A DNA stretch of 64,000 bases from Escherichia coli (GTDB lineage Bacteria; Pseudomonadota; Gammaproteobacteria; Enterobacterales; Enterobacteriaceae). Position 1 is the first letter of the stretch, and every line of letters starts with the position of its first letter. Shown piece after piece: positions 32,904-51,727 of this stretch. A program made the translations under genes and the position numbers. The notes beneath the pieces are model-generated. The model was not told the origin of the DNA and made no database searches. It saw only the letters and a list, made by a program, of their open reading frames with translations. The DNA is taken from the NCBI RefSeq assembly GCF_003334315.1, contig NZ_QOWR01000012.1; one strand, written 5' to 3'.

Positions 32904-33053
32904 GACTCCTCCAGTGAGAAAATAGAGCAAAAAGATAAGTATAGATGCTGGAGGAGGGGCGATTTTAAATGAGAGGAATCTGGTGTGCCTCCCTTTCGGG
33001 TGAAAGGGAGGAAGGGATATTAAGCAGGTTGCTGACAACGTGCGGGCTTTTTT

Positions 33054-38403: not shown

Positions 38404-38436
38404 AAAAAATCCGCCTCTCGGGGCGGATTTTTGTTT
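38404..38436. terminator. Bidirectional intrinsic terminator between ompX and opgE
   Basis: aaaaaATCCGCCtctcgGGGCGGATttttgttttt; GC stem flanked by A and T runs. Confidence 0.8.
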
Positions 38437-40020
38437 TTAAGGTTTCGGGTCGAAAATATCGGTTCCGAGATGGTTGTAATCCACCTTCTGTAACTGGAAG
38501 TTGGTGATGTATATCGGCCCGGCTTTCTTCTCAGATATAAACGGGTATTTGATGTTAATTTCCTTCGCTTTAATCCCCGTCCACTGGGAGAAAAAGCCTA
38601 AGAAGTCATTGGCTGAGCGGCGGGCTTTAATCACACGATGCGCTTTATCGTCGCTGGAAATGACCATAAAAGGCACCTGGAAATTTTGCTGATATTTATC
38701 ATCATGGGCAAGGTATTGCACGTCTTTACCGCGCTCTTTAAAGGCCAGACCGTGGTCAGAAAAGTAAACCAGCGAGAAGCTGCTGCCGCTGTTGCGTAAC
38801 TGATCGTACAGCTTGCGCAGTAAATCGTCCGTTTGCGTCATGGTATAGAGATAGCACGACGTTTCTTTCGATTGCACAAAGGTTTCGTATTTTCCTTGTG
38901 TCCTGTCGCAGGCCTGCGGATGTGAGCCCATCAGATGTAGAACAATCAGCTGCGGTTGCGAGTGCTCTTGCGCCAGCACTTGAGCGGTCATATCCAGTAA
39001 CGCTTCGTCTTTGGTGTTTTTATCTGCTTCAAAATTACCTTCTTTCAGGAAGTACACTTCATCTGCTCGTTTGGCGATGCTGGCGATAGCGGTATCGTAT
39101 TCGCCGATTTGACCCTGGTTGGAAAACCACCAGGTCTGGAAGCCCGCGCGATTTGCCAGGGTGACAAAGTTATCCTGAAACTGTGGTTTGCCATCGACAA
39201 CGCGATTGAGCGTTAAGCCAAGCGATTTCTGCGTGGAGCCACTGGCGGCAATGTAGTCAGCAAATATCAAACCGTTAACGCTGCTGGCAAACGGGGTATT
39301 GTCCCAGTGACCGCCAAAGGCACCGAGGGCATCGCGACGCGCGCTTTCACCGATCACCACCACATAGGTCTGATACTTCGGCTTAACGGCAGTGACCGTC
39401 CAGGTATCTTTCATTCCGGAAAGTTTTGCCATCCGTTCTTGCTCTTCAATCACCTCGTTATTATTGACGATGACATCCTTAGCAAAACGAAATACCGGAT
39501 AGCCAGTATCTTTCAGTTTAAATACGCCACCCCAGGCCAGGTTTTGCACGGGAGCAACAAAAAATGTCGCCACACTGAATACCAGACACAGGCTGTCGAA
39601 GGTATTCCAGCGCGCTTTTTCATTCTCTTTTTTTCGCCTGATTGCTATTACGCCGAGCGCAAAAATAAATAAGCCGACCAGGTAGCTGTACCACGGAAAA
39701 ATCGTCAGGATTTCGGTCGACTCTTCCATATTGGTGGAGTGCAATGCCAGCAATGTATTGAAATTAGGCGCGCCGTAGGCCTGAGCAAAAGGGAAATAAC
39801 AAGCCGCCACCAGCGAACTGACACCGACCAGAACTTTTTGTACGCGAGGCAATGTTCGCCATAGCAAAAGCAAAATAGCCGTAAACGCAGCGGTGTAGAG
39901 CAAACTGAAGGGGTAACCTAAGCCGAGGTTAATTAATAGCGACTGTAAAAAGTAGAACGCAGTCCACGGGCTAAATACCCGGCTACGGGTAACAAGCGAT
40001 TCTTTGAGGGTTAAATTCAT
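38437..40020 (-). CDS. opgE: Phosphoethanolamine transferase OpgE (YbiP)
   Basis: 527 aa; N-terminal TM region and sulfatase-like domain. Confidence 0.9.
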   Translation of the reverse strand: MNLTLKESLVTRSRVFSPWTAFYFLQSLLINLGLGYPFSLLYTAAFTAILLLLWRTLPRVQKVLVGVSSLVAACYFPFAQAYGAPNFNTLLALHSTNMEESTEILTIFPWYSYLVGLFIFALGVIAIRRKKENEKARWNTFDSLCLVFSVATFFVAPVQNLAWGGVFKLKDTGYPVFRFAKDVIVNNNEVIEEQERMAKLSGMKDTWTVTAVKPKYQTYVVVIGESARRDALGAFGGHWDNTPFASSVNGLIFADYIAASGSTQKSLGLTLNRVVDGKPQFQDNFVTLANRAGFQTWWFSNQGQIGEYDTAIASIAKRADEVYFLKEGNFEADKNTKDEALLDMTAQVLAQEHSQPQLIVLHLMGSHPQACDRTQGKYETFVQSKETSCYLYTMTQTDDLLRKLYDQLRNSGSSFSLVYFSDHGLAFKERGKDVQYLAHDDKYQQNFQVPFMVISSDDKAHRVIKARRSANDFLGFFSQWTGIKAKEINIKYPFISEKKAGPIYITNFQLQKVDYNHLGTDIFDPKP

Positions 40021-45218: not shown

Positions 45219-46484
45219 TCAAACATCCATGCCCAACGCTCGCTTACCGTGAATGTTGAGGTCGGCAAGCGTAAAGCGTCCTTCCCAGTTTGTTTCATAG
45301 TCCTCGCGCGGGAAGTCGCCCGGCGATGCGCCTTTTTCCAGTGCGGCCTTCACCTTGTGCGCGTAGGCAAGATTTTTCTCGCACATCGGTGCCGCAGGAA
45401 TGTACATCACGTTGCCCCAACCTTGTTGATTTTCAACGGGGGCAACGGAATGGATGACGTCGCAGTGCCACCAGACGGAGTCTCCGGCTTCGAGTTTTGG
45501 AATGCTGGTTAACGCCTCAATCAACAGTGGATGCCATTGCTCTGATACCGGCAATACTCTTCCGGGCGCTACGCCGCACAGTTCATCCTCCGGCACATCA
45601 TCAAGCAGCGGACGTAACAGTACGTACGCCATAGCTTCAGGAATGGGCACGACGTGCAGCAGCCCCTGACAAGGCAGCATATCAGAGAGCGCTGTCCAGC
45701 CCTGGAATGTCCGAAACACGGAACATTTGGTGGTGTTGTCCACCGTGTACTCTTCAACTTCCGTACGATGTGCCGCATGCCAGGGATCATATTGCGCCAG
45801 ATTGCCATTAAAGACGTTGACGAAAACGCGCTGATACGCTGGAAGCAGCCAGCGTTCCAGTGCCCCGGAGTCGGTATGCGCTCCAAGACCTTTGGAGGTC
45901 GTTCCGGGCGGACGGCGGCGGATACGGTCAGGGTAGATGACGCTCACATCCGGGTTAAACCATTGCTTTCCATCACTTTCAAATGTCCACAGACGATTGA
46001 GAAACGACTGCGCATTCGCCATTTCTTCACTCTGGCGGGCCTGCATTTGCGCCTGCGACCAGTAGATGGGGTAAATCTCGGGACGTGAAGCGCTGAGCGT
46101 CCCGAAGAAATTATCGCCGGGGCCTTTGTAGACCTCGTCAAAGCGGTTGCGGTCCAGATAGTCCAGCATCGACTGATCCCAGCCTAGCGCTTGTTCGCGG
46201 GGGAAATGGCCTTTTATCACCGCACAACCGCGACGTTTAATCTGTTCGCGCTGCTCTGCAGTAACATGACCTGCTTTGATATCGGCATAAGACAGCACCG
46301 GCCAGACGGCATCGCCCTGTGCTTTGAGTGCGTTGATTTCAGCCACTCGCGTGGCAATGTCATCGCTTAGCTGATTAAAGATCTGCTGGACGTCGCCAAG
46401 CTGCGCCCGCAGCGCGTGCTTCATCTGACGGATAGCTGCTTTGTGATCGGCAGGCAATGTGTCGCTGGTAAAAGTAGAAGCCAT
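45219..46484 (-). CDS. ybiU: DUF1479 family protein YbiU
   Basis: Start MASTFTSDTLPADHK (421 aa). Confidence 0.88.
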   Translation of the reverse strand: MASTFTSDTLPADHKAAIRQMKHALRAQLGDVQQIFNQLSDDIATRVAEINALKAQGDAVWPVLSYADIKAGHVTAEQREQIKRRGCAVIKGHFPREQALGWDQSMLDYLDRNRFDEVYKGPGDNFFGTLSASRPEIYPIYWSQAQMQARQSEEMANAQSFLNRLWTFESDGKQWFNPDVSVIYPDRIRRRPPGTTSKGLGAHTDSGALERWLLPAYQRVFVNVFNGNLAQYDPWHAAHRTEVEEYTVDNTTKCSVFRTFQGWTALSDMLPCQGLLHVVPIPEAMAYVLLRPLLDDVPEDELCGVAPGRVLPVSEQWHPLLIEALTSIPKLEAGDSVWWHCDVIHSVAPVENQQGWGNVMYIPAAPMCEKNLAYAHKVKAALEKGASPGDFPREDYETNWEGRFTLADLNIHGKRALGMDV

Positions 46485-46499
46485 AACCACCTCTCATTA

Positions 46500-46513
46500 A
46501 CTTTCATTCGAAA
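46500..46513 (-). promoter_or_regulatory. Copy A of the 14-bp motif TTTCGAATGAAAGT, 16 nt upstream of the ybiU ATG
   Basis: Plus strand actttcattcgaaa is the reverse complement of TTTCGAATGAAAGT; followed on the ybiU strand by SD gagaggtgg. Confidence 0.6.
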
Positions 46514-46635
46514 CCATTCTGATTTGCATGTGACAATATAAGTTATAAATAAGTTAATGCAAGTTTAATGATTTGATGTGATGTACAGGATGTAAAAAGA
46601 AGGGAAAACCGGAGCGCACGGCTCCGGTAGAGAGG

Positions 46636-47451
46636 TCAGCTGTTAAAAGGGGATGTGTTATCCAGCACCGCCTGAATCACATTCAGCGCGCCTTCATGAT
46701 TATTATCATCGGTAGCGTAACGGGCGATTTGTTTAATGTTTTCCGCAGCATTGCCCATCGCAAAGGAATAACGCGCCATTTTCAGCATCTCCGCATCGTT
46801 ACCGCTGTCGCCAATCGCTACCACATTTTGCGGTGACAGATCCCAGCGTTTCAGTAACCGCGAAATACCGTTTGCTTTATGTAGACCGGGAATAATCAGG
46901 TCGATAAAGCCAAAACCACTGGTGACGGGTTTCATAATGCCATCGAGCGCTAGGTGCAGTTTGTCGATCACTAACGGGATTTGTTCATCCGGCAGGTTGA
47001 GCGAAAACTTGAACAGTACGTCGTCAATCTCCTGATAATCTTTTACAGGTTTCAGGCGATGGTAGTGTTTTGCCATCAGTGCGACAAATGCTTCGGGGGC
47101 ATTTTCGCTGACATATGCACTTTGCAGACCGCAGGCGACAAAATTGAGTTGCTTATCTTTTAGCAACTCGCCAATAACAATCCGCGATTCATGTCGGGTC
47201 AGTTCGCCGTGGAACAGTTGCTTGCCATGTTCGTAAACCAGCGCGCCGTTTTCCGCGACAAAAGAGATCTCATCTTTTAGCTCAGGAAAGAACGAAATAA
47301 GCTGGTAATACTGATTACCGCTGGCGACAACGAACTCAATGCCGCGCTTTTTCAGTTCCTGATATTGCGCCATAAAACGTGGTTGGTTGTACGTTTTGGC
47401 GTCGTTAAGAAAAGTACCGTCCATGTCTGTGACGATAACTTTTACGCTCAT
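46636..47451 (-). CDS. ybiV: HAD-family sugar phosphatase YbiV
   Basis: 271 aa; N-terminal DxDGT (VTDMDGTFL) motif. Confidence 0.9.
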
Positions 47452-47521
47452 AGATGTGCTCCTGGCTCGAAAATGAAACCGTAACAGTGTAATAACAATG
47501 TGACACAGAGCACAAATTATA

Positions 47522-47535
47522 TTTCGAATGAAAGT
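47522..47535 (+). promoter_or_regulatory. Copy B of the 14-bp motif TTTCGAATGAAAGT, in the ybiW-ybiV intergenic region
   Basis: Exact 14-mer; about 70 nt upstream of the ybiV start; a CRP-like TGTGAcacagaGCACA lies at 47499-47514. Confidence 0.6.
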
Positions 47536-47596
47536 AGGGGTGGAATTGATGATGTGAATGATTTGGCCCGGCGACGCCGCCGCCGGGCCGAGGAGA

Positions 47597-50029
47597 TTAC
47601 AGCATATGTTCAGTACGGGCGATGATATCGTCCTGAGCGTCTGGAGAGAGCGCGGTGAAGAAGGCGGAATAGCCCGCGACGCGCACTACCAGATCGCGAT
47701 ACTGATCGGGATGTTTTTTCGCCTCCAGCAGCGTCTCGCGGGAAACGATGTTGTACTGAATATGCCAGCCTTTATGCACTTCAAAGAAGGTACGCAGCAG
47801 GATCATCAGTTTCTGCTTGTCAGATTCGTTCTCCAGCGTTGCCGGATTCAGTTTCTGGTTGAGCAACACGCCGCCGAGAATCGCTGCCGTAGGCAGTTTA
47901 CCCACTGAGCCAATGACCGCAGTAGGGCCAAGATGGTCAGTACCGGAAGCCGGACTTGCGCCTTCTGCCAGCGGGGTGTGGGCTTTACGCCCGTCCGGTG
48001 TTGCCATAGTCTGCGCGCCAAACGGTACGTTAGCGGAGATAGACGACGTACCCGCGTAATAGTTGCCGCCAACCGGACCACGACCATAGCGTGGGTTATG
48101 GTACTGTTTCAGTTCGTCGATATAGGTCTGATAAGCGCGAGCCAGCAGCGTATCGACGGTATCATCGTCGTTGCCGTACTTCGGCGCACCGTTAATCAGC
48201 CGCTGACGCAGTTGCTCATGAGTCAGGCCATCGAAGTCATCCGCCAGTGCGGCAGCCAGCTGTTGCTGACCAATCGCACCCTGTTCAAACACCAGTTTCT
48301 TCACTGCCGCCAGGCTGTTGCCGAGGTTGGCAATGCCAACCTGCAGGCCAGAAACCCAGTCATATTTCGCGCCGCCTTGCTTGATACTTTTCGCTCGCTC
48401 AATACAGTCATCCACCAGCGCCGAGCAGAGAATATCGTGTACGTTCTCTTCCAGCATGGTGTCGACGACATATTCGATTTCGATTGATTTACGCGTGTAA
48501 TAACGGATTTGCGTATCCCACGCGTCCATTACTTCATCGAAATTGTTAAAGTTGCCTGCCGACAACGCTTTTTCTTGTGGCAGGAACACTTTGCCGCTGG
48601 TGGCATCACGCCCGCCTTCCAGCGCCGCCAGCATCACGCGGGCGAAGTTGATAAAGCTCATGCCGGTACAGCGATAGCCCCATTTGCCACCGACGGCGGT
48701 TTCGATACAACCAATCGCTGCGTAGTCGTAAGCGTCCTGCGGTTCAATACCGAGTTTAATAAATTCCGGGATCACGATTTCGTCGTTGTTGAACGCCGGC
48801 ATCCCGAAGCCGCAACGGATCACCTGTACGCAGGCGTCGAGGAAATCATTACTCATTCCTGCATGGTAACGCACGCTGAGGTTAGGCTGAGTGGAACGCA
48901 GGCGACCGCAGGATTCGAGGATCGCGTAAGAGAGGGGATTCACTGCATCCATTGGTTGACCATCAACCAGATTTTGTCCGCCAATGGTAACGTTCTGATA
49001 CAGCGGACTTCCCGCAGAGGCTTTTGAGTGTGAGCCGGAGCGGATCTTGTTCACTTCCAGCAGTTTCAGCCAGCAGCTATGCAGCATCTCGATGGCGTGT
49101 TCGCGATCCAGCGTCTGGTTGAGTTCAACGTCGCGGCGATAGTACGGGTAGAGATACTGGTCCATACGACCAAACGATACCGAGTGACCGTTAGATTCGA
49201 TCTGCAAAATCAATTGGATGAAGTAACACAGTTGCAGCGCCTGCCAGAAAGTCTGCGGCGGCTGGTGGGCGATAAGATCGCAGTTTTCTGCCATCGTCAG
49301 CAGTTCATCGCGACGGCTTTCGCGAGTTTCGGTAGCAGCCATTTCACGCGCCAGGGCAGCGAAACGTTCAATGTGTTCACTGACTGCCACCAGCACGATA
49401 TCAATCGCTTTCAGGAATTGTTCGCCATGTAAATCTTCCAGCACCGTCAGATTGATGCGCGAGCGACGTTCCGCTACTTTCTCACGCAGACCATCAAGAC
49501 CTTTTTCCAGCAGCAGCGGGAAATTCACCGCCAGGTGCGCATCGCCGGAGGTCATATTGCCTTCCGCTTTAATGATTCCGGTCGCCAGCAGACCTTTTTG
49601 CTCATCGGTAAACATGCCGTAGCAGCGATCCTGTACGGTCTGACCGCGCCACCACGGGCACACTTCATGCAGAACGCGTTTGTTCTCTTCGCTCACCGCA
49701 AAGCCAGCACCGGGACGATCTGCCAGATCATCAATCTCTTTTTCGATCCACGAGACAGTATATTCCGGGAAGATCGGCGCGGCGCGAACTTCGCTTGCCT
49801 GGTTGCCAATGATCAACTCATCGTGTTTGATCCAGATGGTGCGATTCGCCAGGTGATGCGCCAGTGCCAGCGCGCGACGTACCGGGATCGGCTTATCGAG
49901 ATGTTGTTGATACATCTCGGTATAGTGCTGCGCGCGCTCGGTACAGACTGGCGGTTTCACAATATGCACCAGCGCATTTTTGTGCGCTTTAATGCGGTCG
50001 CTGAGCGTGTCCAGTTTCAGTGTGGTCAT
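47597..50029 (-). CDS. ybiW: Glycyl-radical enzyme (pyruvate formate-lyase-like) YbiW
   Basis: 810 aa; C-terminal glycyl-radical signature RVAGYSAFF. Confidence 0.92.
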
Positions 50030-50034
50030 GGTTG

Positions 50035-50934
50035 TTATCCTCGTAAGGTCGCGGTTAACCCTTTCTGGCAGGCATACTGCTGGGCAAAGTCGAGCAGTTC
50101 TGGCGCATCAAGCGGTTTTTCCGGGGCGTCATAGGGCAGATTAAGTAAGTGATATTTGTTGATGCCCAGCGTGTGGTAGGGCAGAAAATGAATTTCGCCA
50201 ACGTGCAGCTCGTCGGCGGCAAAATCGGTAATGGCTTTTACAGAGGTTTCGTCGGCATTAAAGCCCTGAATCAGCGGCACGCGGATAATGATTTTTTTGC
50301 CCGCTGCGGCGAGTTTTTTCAGGTTATCCAGCACTCTGGCGGCGTTACCGTCGGTCCACTGTTTAAACGGCGCGTCGGCAACGTGTTTTAAATCGGCAAG
50401 AAACAGATCGATATAGGGCAGAGAAGGGGCGATATATTTCCACGGCACATGCAGACAGGTTTCTACCGCAGTATGAATGCCTGCCTCGTGGCTGGCTTGC
50501 AGTAGCGCCATCGCCATTTCCGGCTGCATAAAGGGCTCACCACCCGAAAGCGTTAAACCGCCGCCGCTGCGATCGTAAAACGGTTTATCGCGCAGAACGG
50601 TCGTCATGATCTCCTCAACGCTTTTCACTTCACCACACACGGTTAATGCCTGTGTCGGACAGCAGTCGGTTAACGCCGTCAGATGCTCCGGGGTTAACTT
50701 TTCCCGATGAATAAGCAAACCATTCAGCGCGCGCTCAATCACTTCCGACGCGGCCTTAGCGCACAGCTCGCAGCCTTCCAGACACAGTCGTGCGTCATAC
50801 AGCAGATCCTGCGTGCGGGCGCGGCTTTCCGGGTTCTGACACCAGCGGCAGCCCAGCGAACAGCCTTTAAGAAATACGACCGTGCGGATACCGGGGCCAT
50901 CATGGGTCGAGTAGCGCTGAATATTGAAAATCAT
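50035..50934 (-). CDS. ybiY: Glycyl-radical enzyme activating protein YbiY (radical SAM)
   Basis: CxxxCxxC (CSLGCRWC) near the N-terminus; start taken at [10 protein letters not shown] (299 aa); the ORF extends to 50961 if the upstream ATG is used. Confidence 0.88.
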
Positions 50935-50969
50935 AGTTGCCTCTCTGTTTCGTTCAAACATTAAAATAC

Positions 50970-50983
50970 TTTCGAATGAAAGT
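50970..50983 (+). promoter_or_regulatory. Copy C of the 14-bp motif TTTCGAATGAAAGT, in the ybiY-fsaA divergent region
   Basis: Exact 14-mer; here it is a perfect palindrome in context (ACTTTCgaatGAAAGT). Confidence 0.6.
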
Positions 50984-50987
50984 TAGA

Positions 50988-51001
50988 TTGATGTGCGTCA
51001 A
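50988..51001. promoter_or_regulatory. FNR-like box (TTGATgtgcGTCAA) in the ybiY-fsaA intergenic region
   Basis: One mismatch to TTGAT-N4-ATCAA; centred about 41 bp upstream of a plausible ybiY transcription start. Confidence 0.45.
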
Positions 51002-51064: not shown

Positions 51065-51727
51065 ATGGAACTGTATCTGGATACTTCAGACGTTGTTGCG
51101 GTGAAGGCGCTGTCACGTATTTTTCCGCTGGCGGGTGTGACCACTAACCCAAGCATTATCGCCGCGGGTAAAAAACCGCTGGATGTTGTGCTTCCGCAAC
51201 TTCATGAAGCGATGGGCGGTCAGGGGCGTCTGTTTGCCCAGGTAATGGCTACCACTGCTGAAGGGATGGTGAATGACGCACGTAAATTGCGTTCTATTAT
51301 TGCGGATATCGTGGTGAAAGTTCCGGTGACCGCCGAGGGGCTGGCAGCTATTAAGATGTTAAAAGCGGAAGGGATTCCAACGCTGGGAACCGCGGTATAT
51401 GGCGCAGCACAAGGGCTGCTGTCGGCGCTGGCAGGTGCGGAATATGTTGCGCCTTACGTTAATCGTATTGATGCTCAGGGCGGTAGCGGCATTCAGACTG
51501 TGACCGACTTACACCAGTTATTGAAAATGCATGCGCCGCAGGCGAAAGTGCTGGCAGCGAGTTTCAAAACCCCGCGTCAGGCGCTGGACTGCTTACTGGC
51601 AGGATGTGAATCAATTACGCTGCCACTGGATGTGGCACAACAGATGATTAGCTATCCGGCGGTGGAAGCCGCTGTGGCGAAGTTTGAACAGGACTGGCTG
51701 GGAGCGTTTGGCAGAACGTCGATTTAA
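51065..51727 (+). CDS. fsaA: Fructose-6-phosphate aldolase 1 (FsaA)
   Basis: Start [20 protein letters not shown] (220 aa); transaldolase-like fold. Confidence 0.92.

Follow-up and report, generated by a model that had tools for sequence, protein, structure and literature searches.

Within a 64-kb stretch of Escherichia coli DNA, hereafter referred to as the window, three exact copies of the 14-mer TTTCGAATGAAAGT lie in the promoter regions of ybiU, ybiV, ybiY-ybiW and fsaA, and are very probably high-affinity operators of the DeoR-family repressor YciT. Each operator would be a 16-bp near-palindrome, AC-TTTC-GAAT-GAAA-GT, whose half-site centres are about 10 bp apart, a spacing that would suit a dimer of winged-helix domains bound to one face of the DNA. 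The control of ybiU, ybiV, ybiW, ybiY and fsaA by YciT is an already known regulon and, since it has been published, the finding adds little: regulator, targets and direction are all those of the published system, and the two are the same thing, but the 16-bp operator, its conservation and the link to 1,5-anhydroglucitol are not spelled out there (PMC8464067; 10.1101/2025.05.13.653802). The initial annotation of this DNA had proposed that a common repressor joins ybiU, ybiV, ybiW-ybiY and fsaA, and this part stands, whereas the idea of an undescribed regulon does not, as the YciT regulon was published in 2021 and 2025. Nor is the motif without a named regulator, as had been supposed, given that YciT is known from ChIP-exo, deletion data and pull-down.

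Three conserved copies of one motif

The exact copies are located at 46500-46513 on the minus strand and at 47522-47535 and 50970-50983 on the plus strand, as the initial annotation had them, and the same three are present in MG1655. Its view that chance is a very unlikely cause holds as well, with 0.01 copies expected per window and none of 100 dinucleotide shuffles reaching three, and its statement that the motif occurs nowhere else in the 64 kb extends to versions with one or two mismatches, which are likewise absent; at three mismatches there are four matches in the 64 kb, equal to chance expectation. Copy C had been singled out as a perfect palindrome, and its 6-bp arms are indeed perfect. 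On the other hand, the blocks flanking B and C, and A and B, which had been taken for common elements, are either not conserved or parts of other elements: the blocks ATTGATGATGTG and AGGGGTGG adjoining B show an identity of about 0.25 to the E. coli base in 60 species, i.e., no conservation, AGAGGTGG adjoining A is the Shine-Dalgarno sequence of ybiU, and ATTGATG adjoining C forms one of the two arms of an FNR-like box, a distinct element that is itself conserved.

Table 1. Genes of the ybi cluster, putative operators A to C and further sites, in window coordinates.
Feature	Position	Strand	Remarks
ybiU (DUF1479 / PF07350)	45219..46484	-	regulon member
ybiV (sugar phosphatase)	46636..47451	-	regulon member
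ybiW (glycyl radical enzyme)	47597..50029	-	regulon member
ybiY (glycyl-radical activating enzyme)	50035..50934	-	regulon member
fsaA	51065..51727	+	
Putative operator A, GGTTTCGAATGAAAGT	46500..46515	-	15 nt upstream of ybiU ATG
Putative operator B, TATTTCGAATGAAAGT	47520..47535	+	70 nt upstream of ybiV ATG, past the ybiW terminator hairpin
Putative operator C, ACTTTC-GAAT-GAAAGT	50968..50983	+	perfect palindrome, ybiY/fsaA divergent promoter region
Weaker YciT site, TTTCGGGTCGAAA (5-bp spacer)	38444..38456		just downstream of ompX, ChIP-exo peak S/N 14.9
Weak YciT site, TTTCGGGTGAAAG	32994..33006		in a 10-bp-arm palindrome near ybiO, ChIP-exo peak S/N 2.7
FNR-like box, TTGAT-GTGC-GTCAA	50988..51001		6 bp from operator C core, outside the 14-mer motif
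CRP-like box, TGTGA-CACAGA-GCACA	47499..47514		between operator B and ybiV

When considered with respect to the neighbouring genes, site A probably lies in the 5' leader of ybiU or just downstream of its promoter, site B is directly adjoined by a TATAAT sequence (47516-47521, minus strand), and site C is found 33 nt from the start codon of ybiY and 81 nt from that of fsaA. A consensus promoter scan returned no convincing sigma-70 promoter at any of the three sites, and therefore the promoter geometry given here is one that we infer.

Phylogenetic footprinting, which the initial annotation had recommended, revealed conservation at all three intergenic positions: the 12-bp core is retained at each of them in 80 Enterobacteriaceae species, with the flanking intergenic DNA at an identity of about 0.5. 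The core of A is retained in 59 related loci and C in 77 of 81 sequences, and the arms of B in 54 loci, in which the orientation of the central GAAT/ATTC flips among genera. It is virtually inconceivable that the motif is a functionless duplication remnant or a small dispersed repeat: although three identical copies are packed inside 4.5 kb, just 12-16 bp are common to them, their flanks are unrelated, and the same three promoter positions are occupied across about 25 genera, no extra copy being found in 1.48 Mb of related loci (about 20 kb each, from 80 species). A dispersed repeat of the REP or MITE type was thus rejected, there being only three promoter-linked copies per locus and none extra in the window. 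Further regulon members were also considered in two species in which the spacing of the sites differs; the inserted genes, an Hcp/T6SS island in Citrobacter koseri and an M48-like peptidase in C. gillenii, both turned out to be unrelated insertions.

A role in RNA, with the motif acting as a 5'-leader hairpin, might be suggested by copy C, which can form a 6-bp hairpin of -4.9 kcal/mol (z = -5.5), and by the location of copy A in the probable ybiU leader. However, copies A (-3.1 kcal/mol) and B (-0.4 kcal/mol) fold no better than shuffled sequences, the arms of the motif are invariant and therefore offer no covariation, at B the orientation of the central 4 bp changes, copy C is situated in a divergent intergenic region, and protein ChIP peaks cover this very motif elsewhere. 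This explanation is extremely unlikely and was rejected.

The genomic position of the regulator gene differs among families. In E. coli, yciT is about 485 kb away from the ybi cluster. A gene for a YciT orthologue of 58-65% identity (E values from 1e-106 to 1e-111) adjoins the cluster in Yersinia, Mixta, Pantoea, Erwinia and Brenneria, with ACTTTC-TTTC-GAAAGT at the matching intergenic position.

YciT and its published binding peaks

YciT (b1284) carries the Pfam domains of the DeoR family, HTH_DeoR at its N-terminus (1.4e-15) and the DeoRC sensor domain at its C-terminus (7.7e-47). A check for ChIP data sets peaking at the cluster, proposed in the initial annotation, led to the YciT ChIP-exo peaks of Gao et al. 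2021 (NAR; PMC8464067), with S/N values of 24 and 45 at the ybi cluster, only those of yfcV and rdcA being higher among 49 peaks in all. In the same work, deletion of yciT changed the expression of ybiY by a log2 fold change of +7.7, ybiU by +7.0, ybiW by +3.5, ybiV by +2.2 and fsaA by +1.8 (PMC8464067, Dataset S6), and these deletion data show repression by YciT. More recently, the pull-down with mass spectrometry that had also been advised was reported for ybiY promoter DNA: in a Reg-Seq preprint of 2025, YciT was enriched on ybiY promoter baits and named as a repressor, with a site that coincides in part with the footprint of RNA polymerase and is some 100 bases distant from the ChIP-exo peak (bioRxiv 10.1101/2025.05.13.653802). 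The position of site C fits this Reg-Seq site. Additionally, a "YciT" iModulon has been named (PMC11748552), and the published YciT logo (Fig. 2C) is stated to be palindromic.

Annotation of the protein is less uniform, as RegulonDB reportedly lists YciT as an activator and RefSeq describes it as a transcriptional regulator and "dual regulator". An activating or dual action at these three sites could also be accommodated by site B, which lies upstream of the CRP-like box in a position also suiting activation. Such an action is nevertheless highly unlikely, given that the yciT deletion raises all five genes and that sites A and C overlap the leader or core promoter.

In order to relate the motif to binding, the published YciT peaks were converted from NC_000913.2 to sequence, and 15 peaks outside the ybi cluster were checked. 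TTTC-N4/5-GAAA stands at the centre of eight of them (yfcV, rdcA, yjiT, oppA, pdeR, sixA, ompX and ybiO), and a one-mismatch version is centred in two more (yjjI and yhgE), with the motif starting about 10 nt into each peak of about 30 bp. The site under the strongest peak, yfcV, is ACTTTCCGAATGAAAGT, which has CGAATGAAAGT in common with the ybi operators. A scan of 188 kb of MG1655 sequence gave just 12 occurrences of TTTC-N4-GAAA, eight of which are accounted for by the three ybi sites together with those found under a peak.

An exception is formed by the two peaks published for the ybi cluster. Unlike all other checked peaks having a motif, which are centred on it, they are displaced by 155 bp from A (at the ybiV 3' end) and by 103 bp from C (at the fsaA 5' end), and contain no TTTC-N4-GAAA; at operator B, the published table has no ChIP-exo peak. 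Numbering according to NC_000913.3 was rejected as the cause, because the peaks would then fall inside ybiU and ybiY, again without the motif, and no single offset brings both peaks onto motifs. This displacement favours another possibility, namely that the motif belongs to another transcription factor and that YciT binds 100-155 bp away, at the published peaks. Three observations make this very unlikely: the motif stands at the centre of eight YciT peaks outside the cluster, including the strongest with its CGAATGAAAGT; the Reg-Seq pull-down puts YciT some 100 bases away from the ChIP-exo peak, in a position that fits motif C; and in other families, too, YciT orthologues and the motif occur together. 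The 14-mer itself shows neither the FNR pattern TTGAT-N4-ATCAA nor the CRP pattern TGTGA-N6-TCACA. The putative operators can now be located to the base pair, at positions with which the published peak coordinates do not coincide, and the site at ybiV is an unreported one. The paralogous cluster pflD-pflC-fsaB was tried as a further part of the regulon; its promoters are devoid of TTTC-N4-GAAA and there is no YciT peak, and it is therefore placed outside the YciT regulon.

Neighbouring boxes and related repressors

The FNR-like box next to site C follows TTGAY-N4-RTCAA in 72 of 77 loci, in 71 of these 72 separated from the operator core by 6 bp; its arms are conserved and its spacer varies. 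It is also found in Yersinia, Mixta, Brenneria and Enterobacillus. The box is probably a site for an anaerobic activator, common to the ybiY and fsaA promoters, and may explain both the anaerobic activation and the Reg-Seq activator footprint to which no factor has been assigned; none of the papers covered by a literature search links FNR to ybiY or ybiW regulation. The CRP-like box, TGTG-N8-CACA, is present, with a spacer that varies, in 41 of 56 loci and forms a conserved block in the alignment.

A close parallel is the DeoR/deo system of E. coli, in which several operators, all 16-bp palindromes, are bound by an oligomer that represses by DNA looping, and in which repression is relieved by deoxyribose-5-phosphate. 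YciT has the same domain architecture as DeoR, and the likeness includes the 16-bp palindrome, three separated sites in one cluster and sugar-phosphate catabolism, but the operator sequence is not the same. GlpR, AgaR, UlaR, SrlR, GatR and FucR are local repressors of phosphosugar pathways, often together with CRP, and AgaR sites contain CTTTC-type repeats too. The E. coli genes for these six repressors are usually found beside their own targets, whereas yciT is far from the ybi cluster in Enterobacteriaceae and adjacent to it in Yersinia, Erwiniaceae and Brenneria.

A possible switch for 1,5-anhydroglucitol breakdown

Once bound, YciT would silence ybiU from a site in its leader, ybiV from a site beside the TATAAT sequence and the CRP-like box, and the divergent ybiY-ybiW and fsaA promoters from a site between the FNR-like box and ybiY. 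YbiW is reported to act on 1,5-anhydroglucitol-6-phosphate, and has recently been assigned a role in the gut breakdown of 1,5-anhydroglucitol (PMC12441222). Family and pathway suggest that YciT may be released, via its DeoRC sensor domain, by a phosphosugar of the anaerobic breakdown pathway of 1,5-anhydroglucitol-6-phosphate; from the pathway described in PMC12441222, 1,5-anhydroglucitol-6-phosphate and 1-deoxyfructose-6-phosphate would be the candidate inducers. FNR would add an anaerobic input and CRP one of carbon source.

A joint reading of these elements, which is put forward tentatively, is that YciT may be the sensor-repressor of an anaerobic "radical glycolysis" for 1,5-anhydroglucitol, released by one of the two candidate inducers. 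The three operators, the FNR-like box (corresponding to the Reg-Seq activator footprint) and the CRP-like box would then constitute a three-input switch for substrate, anaerobiosis and carbon status, and yciT would ancestrally have resided inside the cluster and moved in Enterobacteriaceae to the pdeR-yciT-osmB locus, where the YciT site upstream of pdeR may provide autoregulation. A connection can now be drawn from the regulator to the function of YbiW in 1,5-anhydroglucitol breakdown, and it is this connection that points to candidate inducers.

Three probable operators at the ybi-fsaA cluster

An exact search of the whole 64-kb window finds TTTCGAATGAAAGT at three places and no more (0.01 copies expected), a number reached by no shuffle; variants with one or two mismatches are absent from the same 64 kb. 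All three, referred to here as sites or operators A, B and C, lie in the E. coli ybiU-ybiV-ybiW-ybiY / fsaA cluster, as the initial annotation had reported, and its description of copy C as a perfect palindrome holds as well (ACTTTC-GAAT-GAAAGT). The window is not MG1655, but all three copies are present in that strain as well, at 859077, 860099 and 863547 of NC_000913.3.

Conservation was assessed in 80 loci fetched with YbiY as anchor, one genome per species, from about 25 genera of Enterobacteriaceae. Within these loci (~20 kb each, up to two mismatches), copies are confined to the three expected positions and none was found elsewhere, the consensus being tt-AC-TTTC-GAAT-GAAA-GT-ta. The arms and central GAAT persist against intergenic surroundings that drop to ~0.5 identity; the check on orthologous intergenic regions proposed with the original observation thus finds the cores retained at all three positions. 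At site B the centre flips between GAAT and ATTC among genera with unchanged arms, which fits a site for a symmetric protein and counts against an RNA element with a set orientation; an RNA hairpin at A and B was likewise rejected, folding there being no better than in shuffles. Two loci carry insertions, namely ~3.5 kb with an Hcp (TssD) gene from ybiW to operator B in Citrobacter koseri (L014 13400-17000) and a gene for a 655-aa M48/HtpX-like peptidase between ybiV and ybiU in C. gillenii (L008 14394-16361), and operators are kept on either side of both.

Sites, boxes and YciT peaks (window coordinates unless stated; L082 and L084 are fetched MG1655 sequences)
Feature	Position	Strand	Sequence	Remarks
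Site A	46500-46513	-	TTTCGAATGAAAGT	exact; ybiU ATG 15 nt downstream
Site B	47522-47535	+	TTTCGAATGAAAGT	exact; upstream of ybiV, ATG 70 nt away, past ybiW terminator
Site C	50970-50983	+	TTTCGAATGAAAGT	exact; between ybiY and fsaA
CRP-like box and perfect TATAAT (ybiV strand)	47499-47521		TGTGA-N6-GCACA	directly adjoining operator B
FNR-like box	50988-51001		TTGAT-GTGC-GTCAA	6 bp from operator C core
ybiO peak	32983-33014		TTTCGGGTGAAAG	converted peak exactly on TTTCG...GAAA palindrome
ompX peak	38435-38462		TTTCGGGTCGAAA	converted peak exactly on TTTCG...GAAA palindrome
yfcV peak			ACTTTCCGAATGAAAGT	S/N 69, strongest
rdcA peak			TTTCATTTGAAAG	S/N 30
yjiT peak			TTTCATTTGAAA	S/N 20
oppA peak			TTTCAAATGAAA	S/N 12
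sixA peak			TTTCATCTGAAA	S/N 11
pdeR upstream peak	L082 48381-48392 (NC_000913.3 1346880)		TTTCAAACGAAAGT	S/N 9.7
yjjI-yjjW upstream peak	L084 ~46148-46178 (NC_000913.3 4617147-4617177)		ATTCATTTGAAAGT	one-mismatch site

YciT as the published repressor

The proposal of a shared repressor tying ybiU, ybiV, ybiW-ybiY and fsaA together was sound functional reasoning; what does not stand is that the regulon is undescribed and its regulator unnamed. Gao et al. 2021 (PMC8464067) tagged the DeoR-family protein YciT (b1284) and obtained 49 ChIP-exo peaks, two of them at the cluster (S/N 24 and 45). Deletion of yciT raised all five genes, with log2 fold changes of +7.7 (ybiY), +7.0 (ybiU), +3.5 (ybiW), +2.2 (ybiV) and +1.8 (fsaA), and Supplementary Figure 17 of that study gives ybiV, ybiU, fsaA and ybiY as repressed by YciT. 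A 2025 Reg-Seq preprint (10.1101/2025.05.13.653802) found the ybiY promoter active anaerobically, recovered YciT from ybiY promoter baits by DNA-affinity mass spectrometry with an aerobic lysate, called it a repressor and placed its site over the RNA polymerase footprint; an iModulon is named 'YciT' in PMC11748552. Repression of the five genes by YciT, and its capture on DNA of the ybiY promoter, are thus shown by published data, and the experiments initially proposed, including pull-down with mass spectrometry, are already in print and name YciT.

The motif beneath YciT peaks and beside yciT homologues

Genome-wide, the motif is found beneath YciT peaks; it is also conserved and occurs together with the regulator. 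In the cluster region we take NC_000913.3 to equal NC_000913.2 + 777, a conversion supported by the peak-motif coincidences that followed from applying it, and the window here is NC_000913.3 - 812577. Among the peaks, given in NC_000913.2 (PMC8464067), those at ybiO and ompX are the weaker pair within the window; both are intergenic or terminator-proximal without an obvious target, the former coinciding with a 10-bp-arm palindrome (CCTCCCTTTCGGGTGAAAGGGAGG) and the latter lying just past the ompX terminator. MG1655 sequence was fetched beneath 13 further peaks: the motif begins ~10 nt inside the ~30-bp peak at yfcV, rdcA, yjiT, oppA, sixA and pdeR, one-mismatch versions lie beneath those at yjjI and yhgE, and it is absent from five weak peaks. 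TTTC-N4-GAAA occurs only 12 times in 188 kb of fetched MG1655 sequence; the three ybi sites and copies beneath peaks account for eight of these, and the remaining four, whose central bases differ, are unbound. Because of these peak-centred sites and this census, the YciT-peak motif is the one first noticed, with its best examples in the ybi copies, as predicted YciT sites.

The peak at pdeR lies 138 bp upstream of that gene, with yciZ and then yciT downstream on the same strand, and may reflect autoregulation. Several other weak peaks fall at c-di-GMP genes (rdcA, dgcT, pdeF and csgA), and yjjI-yjjW, adjoining deoC, putatively encodes a further glycyl-radical enzyme with its activase.

At the cluster itself, the published peaks convert to 46655-46688, 155 bp from A within the ybiV 3' end, and 51073-51100, 103 bp from C within the fsaA 5' end; neither contains the motif, which is central in every other motif-bearing peak inspected, and the published table lists no peak at B (PMC8464067). 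The offset at C agrees with the ~100 bases by which the Reg-Seq authors remarked that their own YciT site departs from the ChIP-exo peak (10.1101/2025.05.13.653802). The offsets at A and C might come from an artefact of peak pairing where sites are very strong, or from secondary cross-links of an oligomer.

Genomic context lends the YciT-operator link support of its own, apart from the E. coli experiments. YbiW homologues (87-90% identity) were found in Yersinia, Mixta, Pantoea alhagi, Erwinia, Brenneria and Enterobacillus, and in five of these six taxa a DeoR-type gene directly adjoins the cluster, its product being 58-65% identical to E. coli YciT (HTH_DeoR and DeoRC domains; E 1e-106 to 1e-111). 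All six carry ACTTTC-TTTC-GAAAGT at the same place in the fsa-ybiY intergenic region. TTTC-GAAT-GAAA precedes the ybiU-like gene in Pantoea and Erwinia and, with one mismatch, in Mixta; a second site precedes the regulator gene in Yersinia. Database protein P0007 (1047 aa) matches YbiW at 100% identity across 92% of the query and bears HAD phosphatase domains as well; a gene-call fusion of YbiW and YbiV or an annotation artefact is the probable explanation.

Promoter architecture and pathway

A YciT dimer would occupy two half-sites with centres ~10 bp apart, blocking transcription at the leader at site A, and site C would lie inside the ybiY core promoter. Beside C, 72 of 77 loci have TTGAY-N4-RTCAA at 6 bp from the core, its arms conserved and its spacer free, and the box recurs in the distant families of Yersinia, Mixta, Brenneria and Enterobacillus. 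Were this FNR-like box centred at -41.5 for both divergent promoters, transcription of ybiY would start at ~50953 and that of fsaA at ~51036, and operator C would fall between the ybiY -10 and -35 elements. Reg-Seq, which never mentions FNR, reports an activator footprint near -20 without a named factor and the YciT site near -5 (10.1101/2025.05.13.653802); the box, ~18 bp upstream of the operator C centre, matches this spacing and may be that footprint of the anaerobic ybiY promoter. Beside B, TGTG-N8-CACA is present in 41 of 56 species.

According to Ma et al. 2024, as relayed in PMC12441222, YbiW converts 1,5-anhydroglucitol-6-phosphate to 1-deoxyfructose-6-phosphate under strict anaerobiosis, and the inducer may be a phosphosugar of this pathway. 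The initial observation is correct, and the YciT regulon of this cluster had already been described; the residual value of the observation lies in the exact operator positions, the previously unreported ybiV site (B), the FNR-like box, the possibly ancestral position of yciT beside the cluster and the tie to the 1,5-anhydroglucitol pathway.
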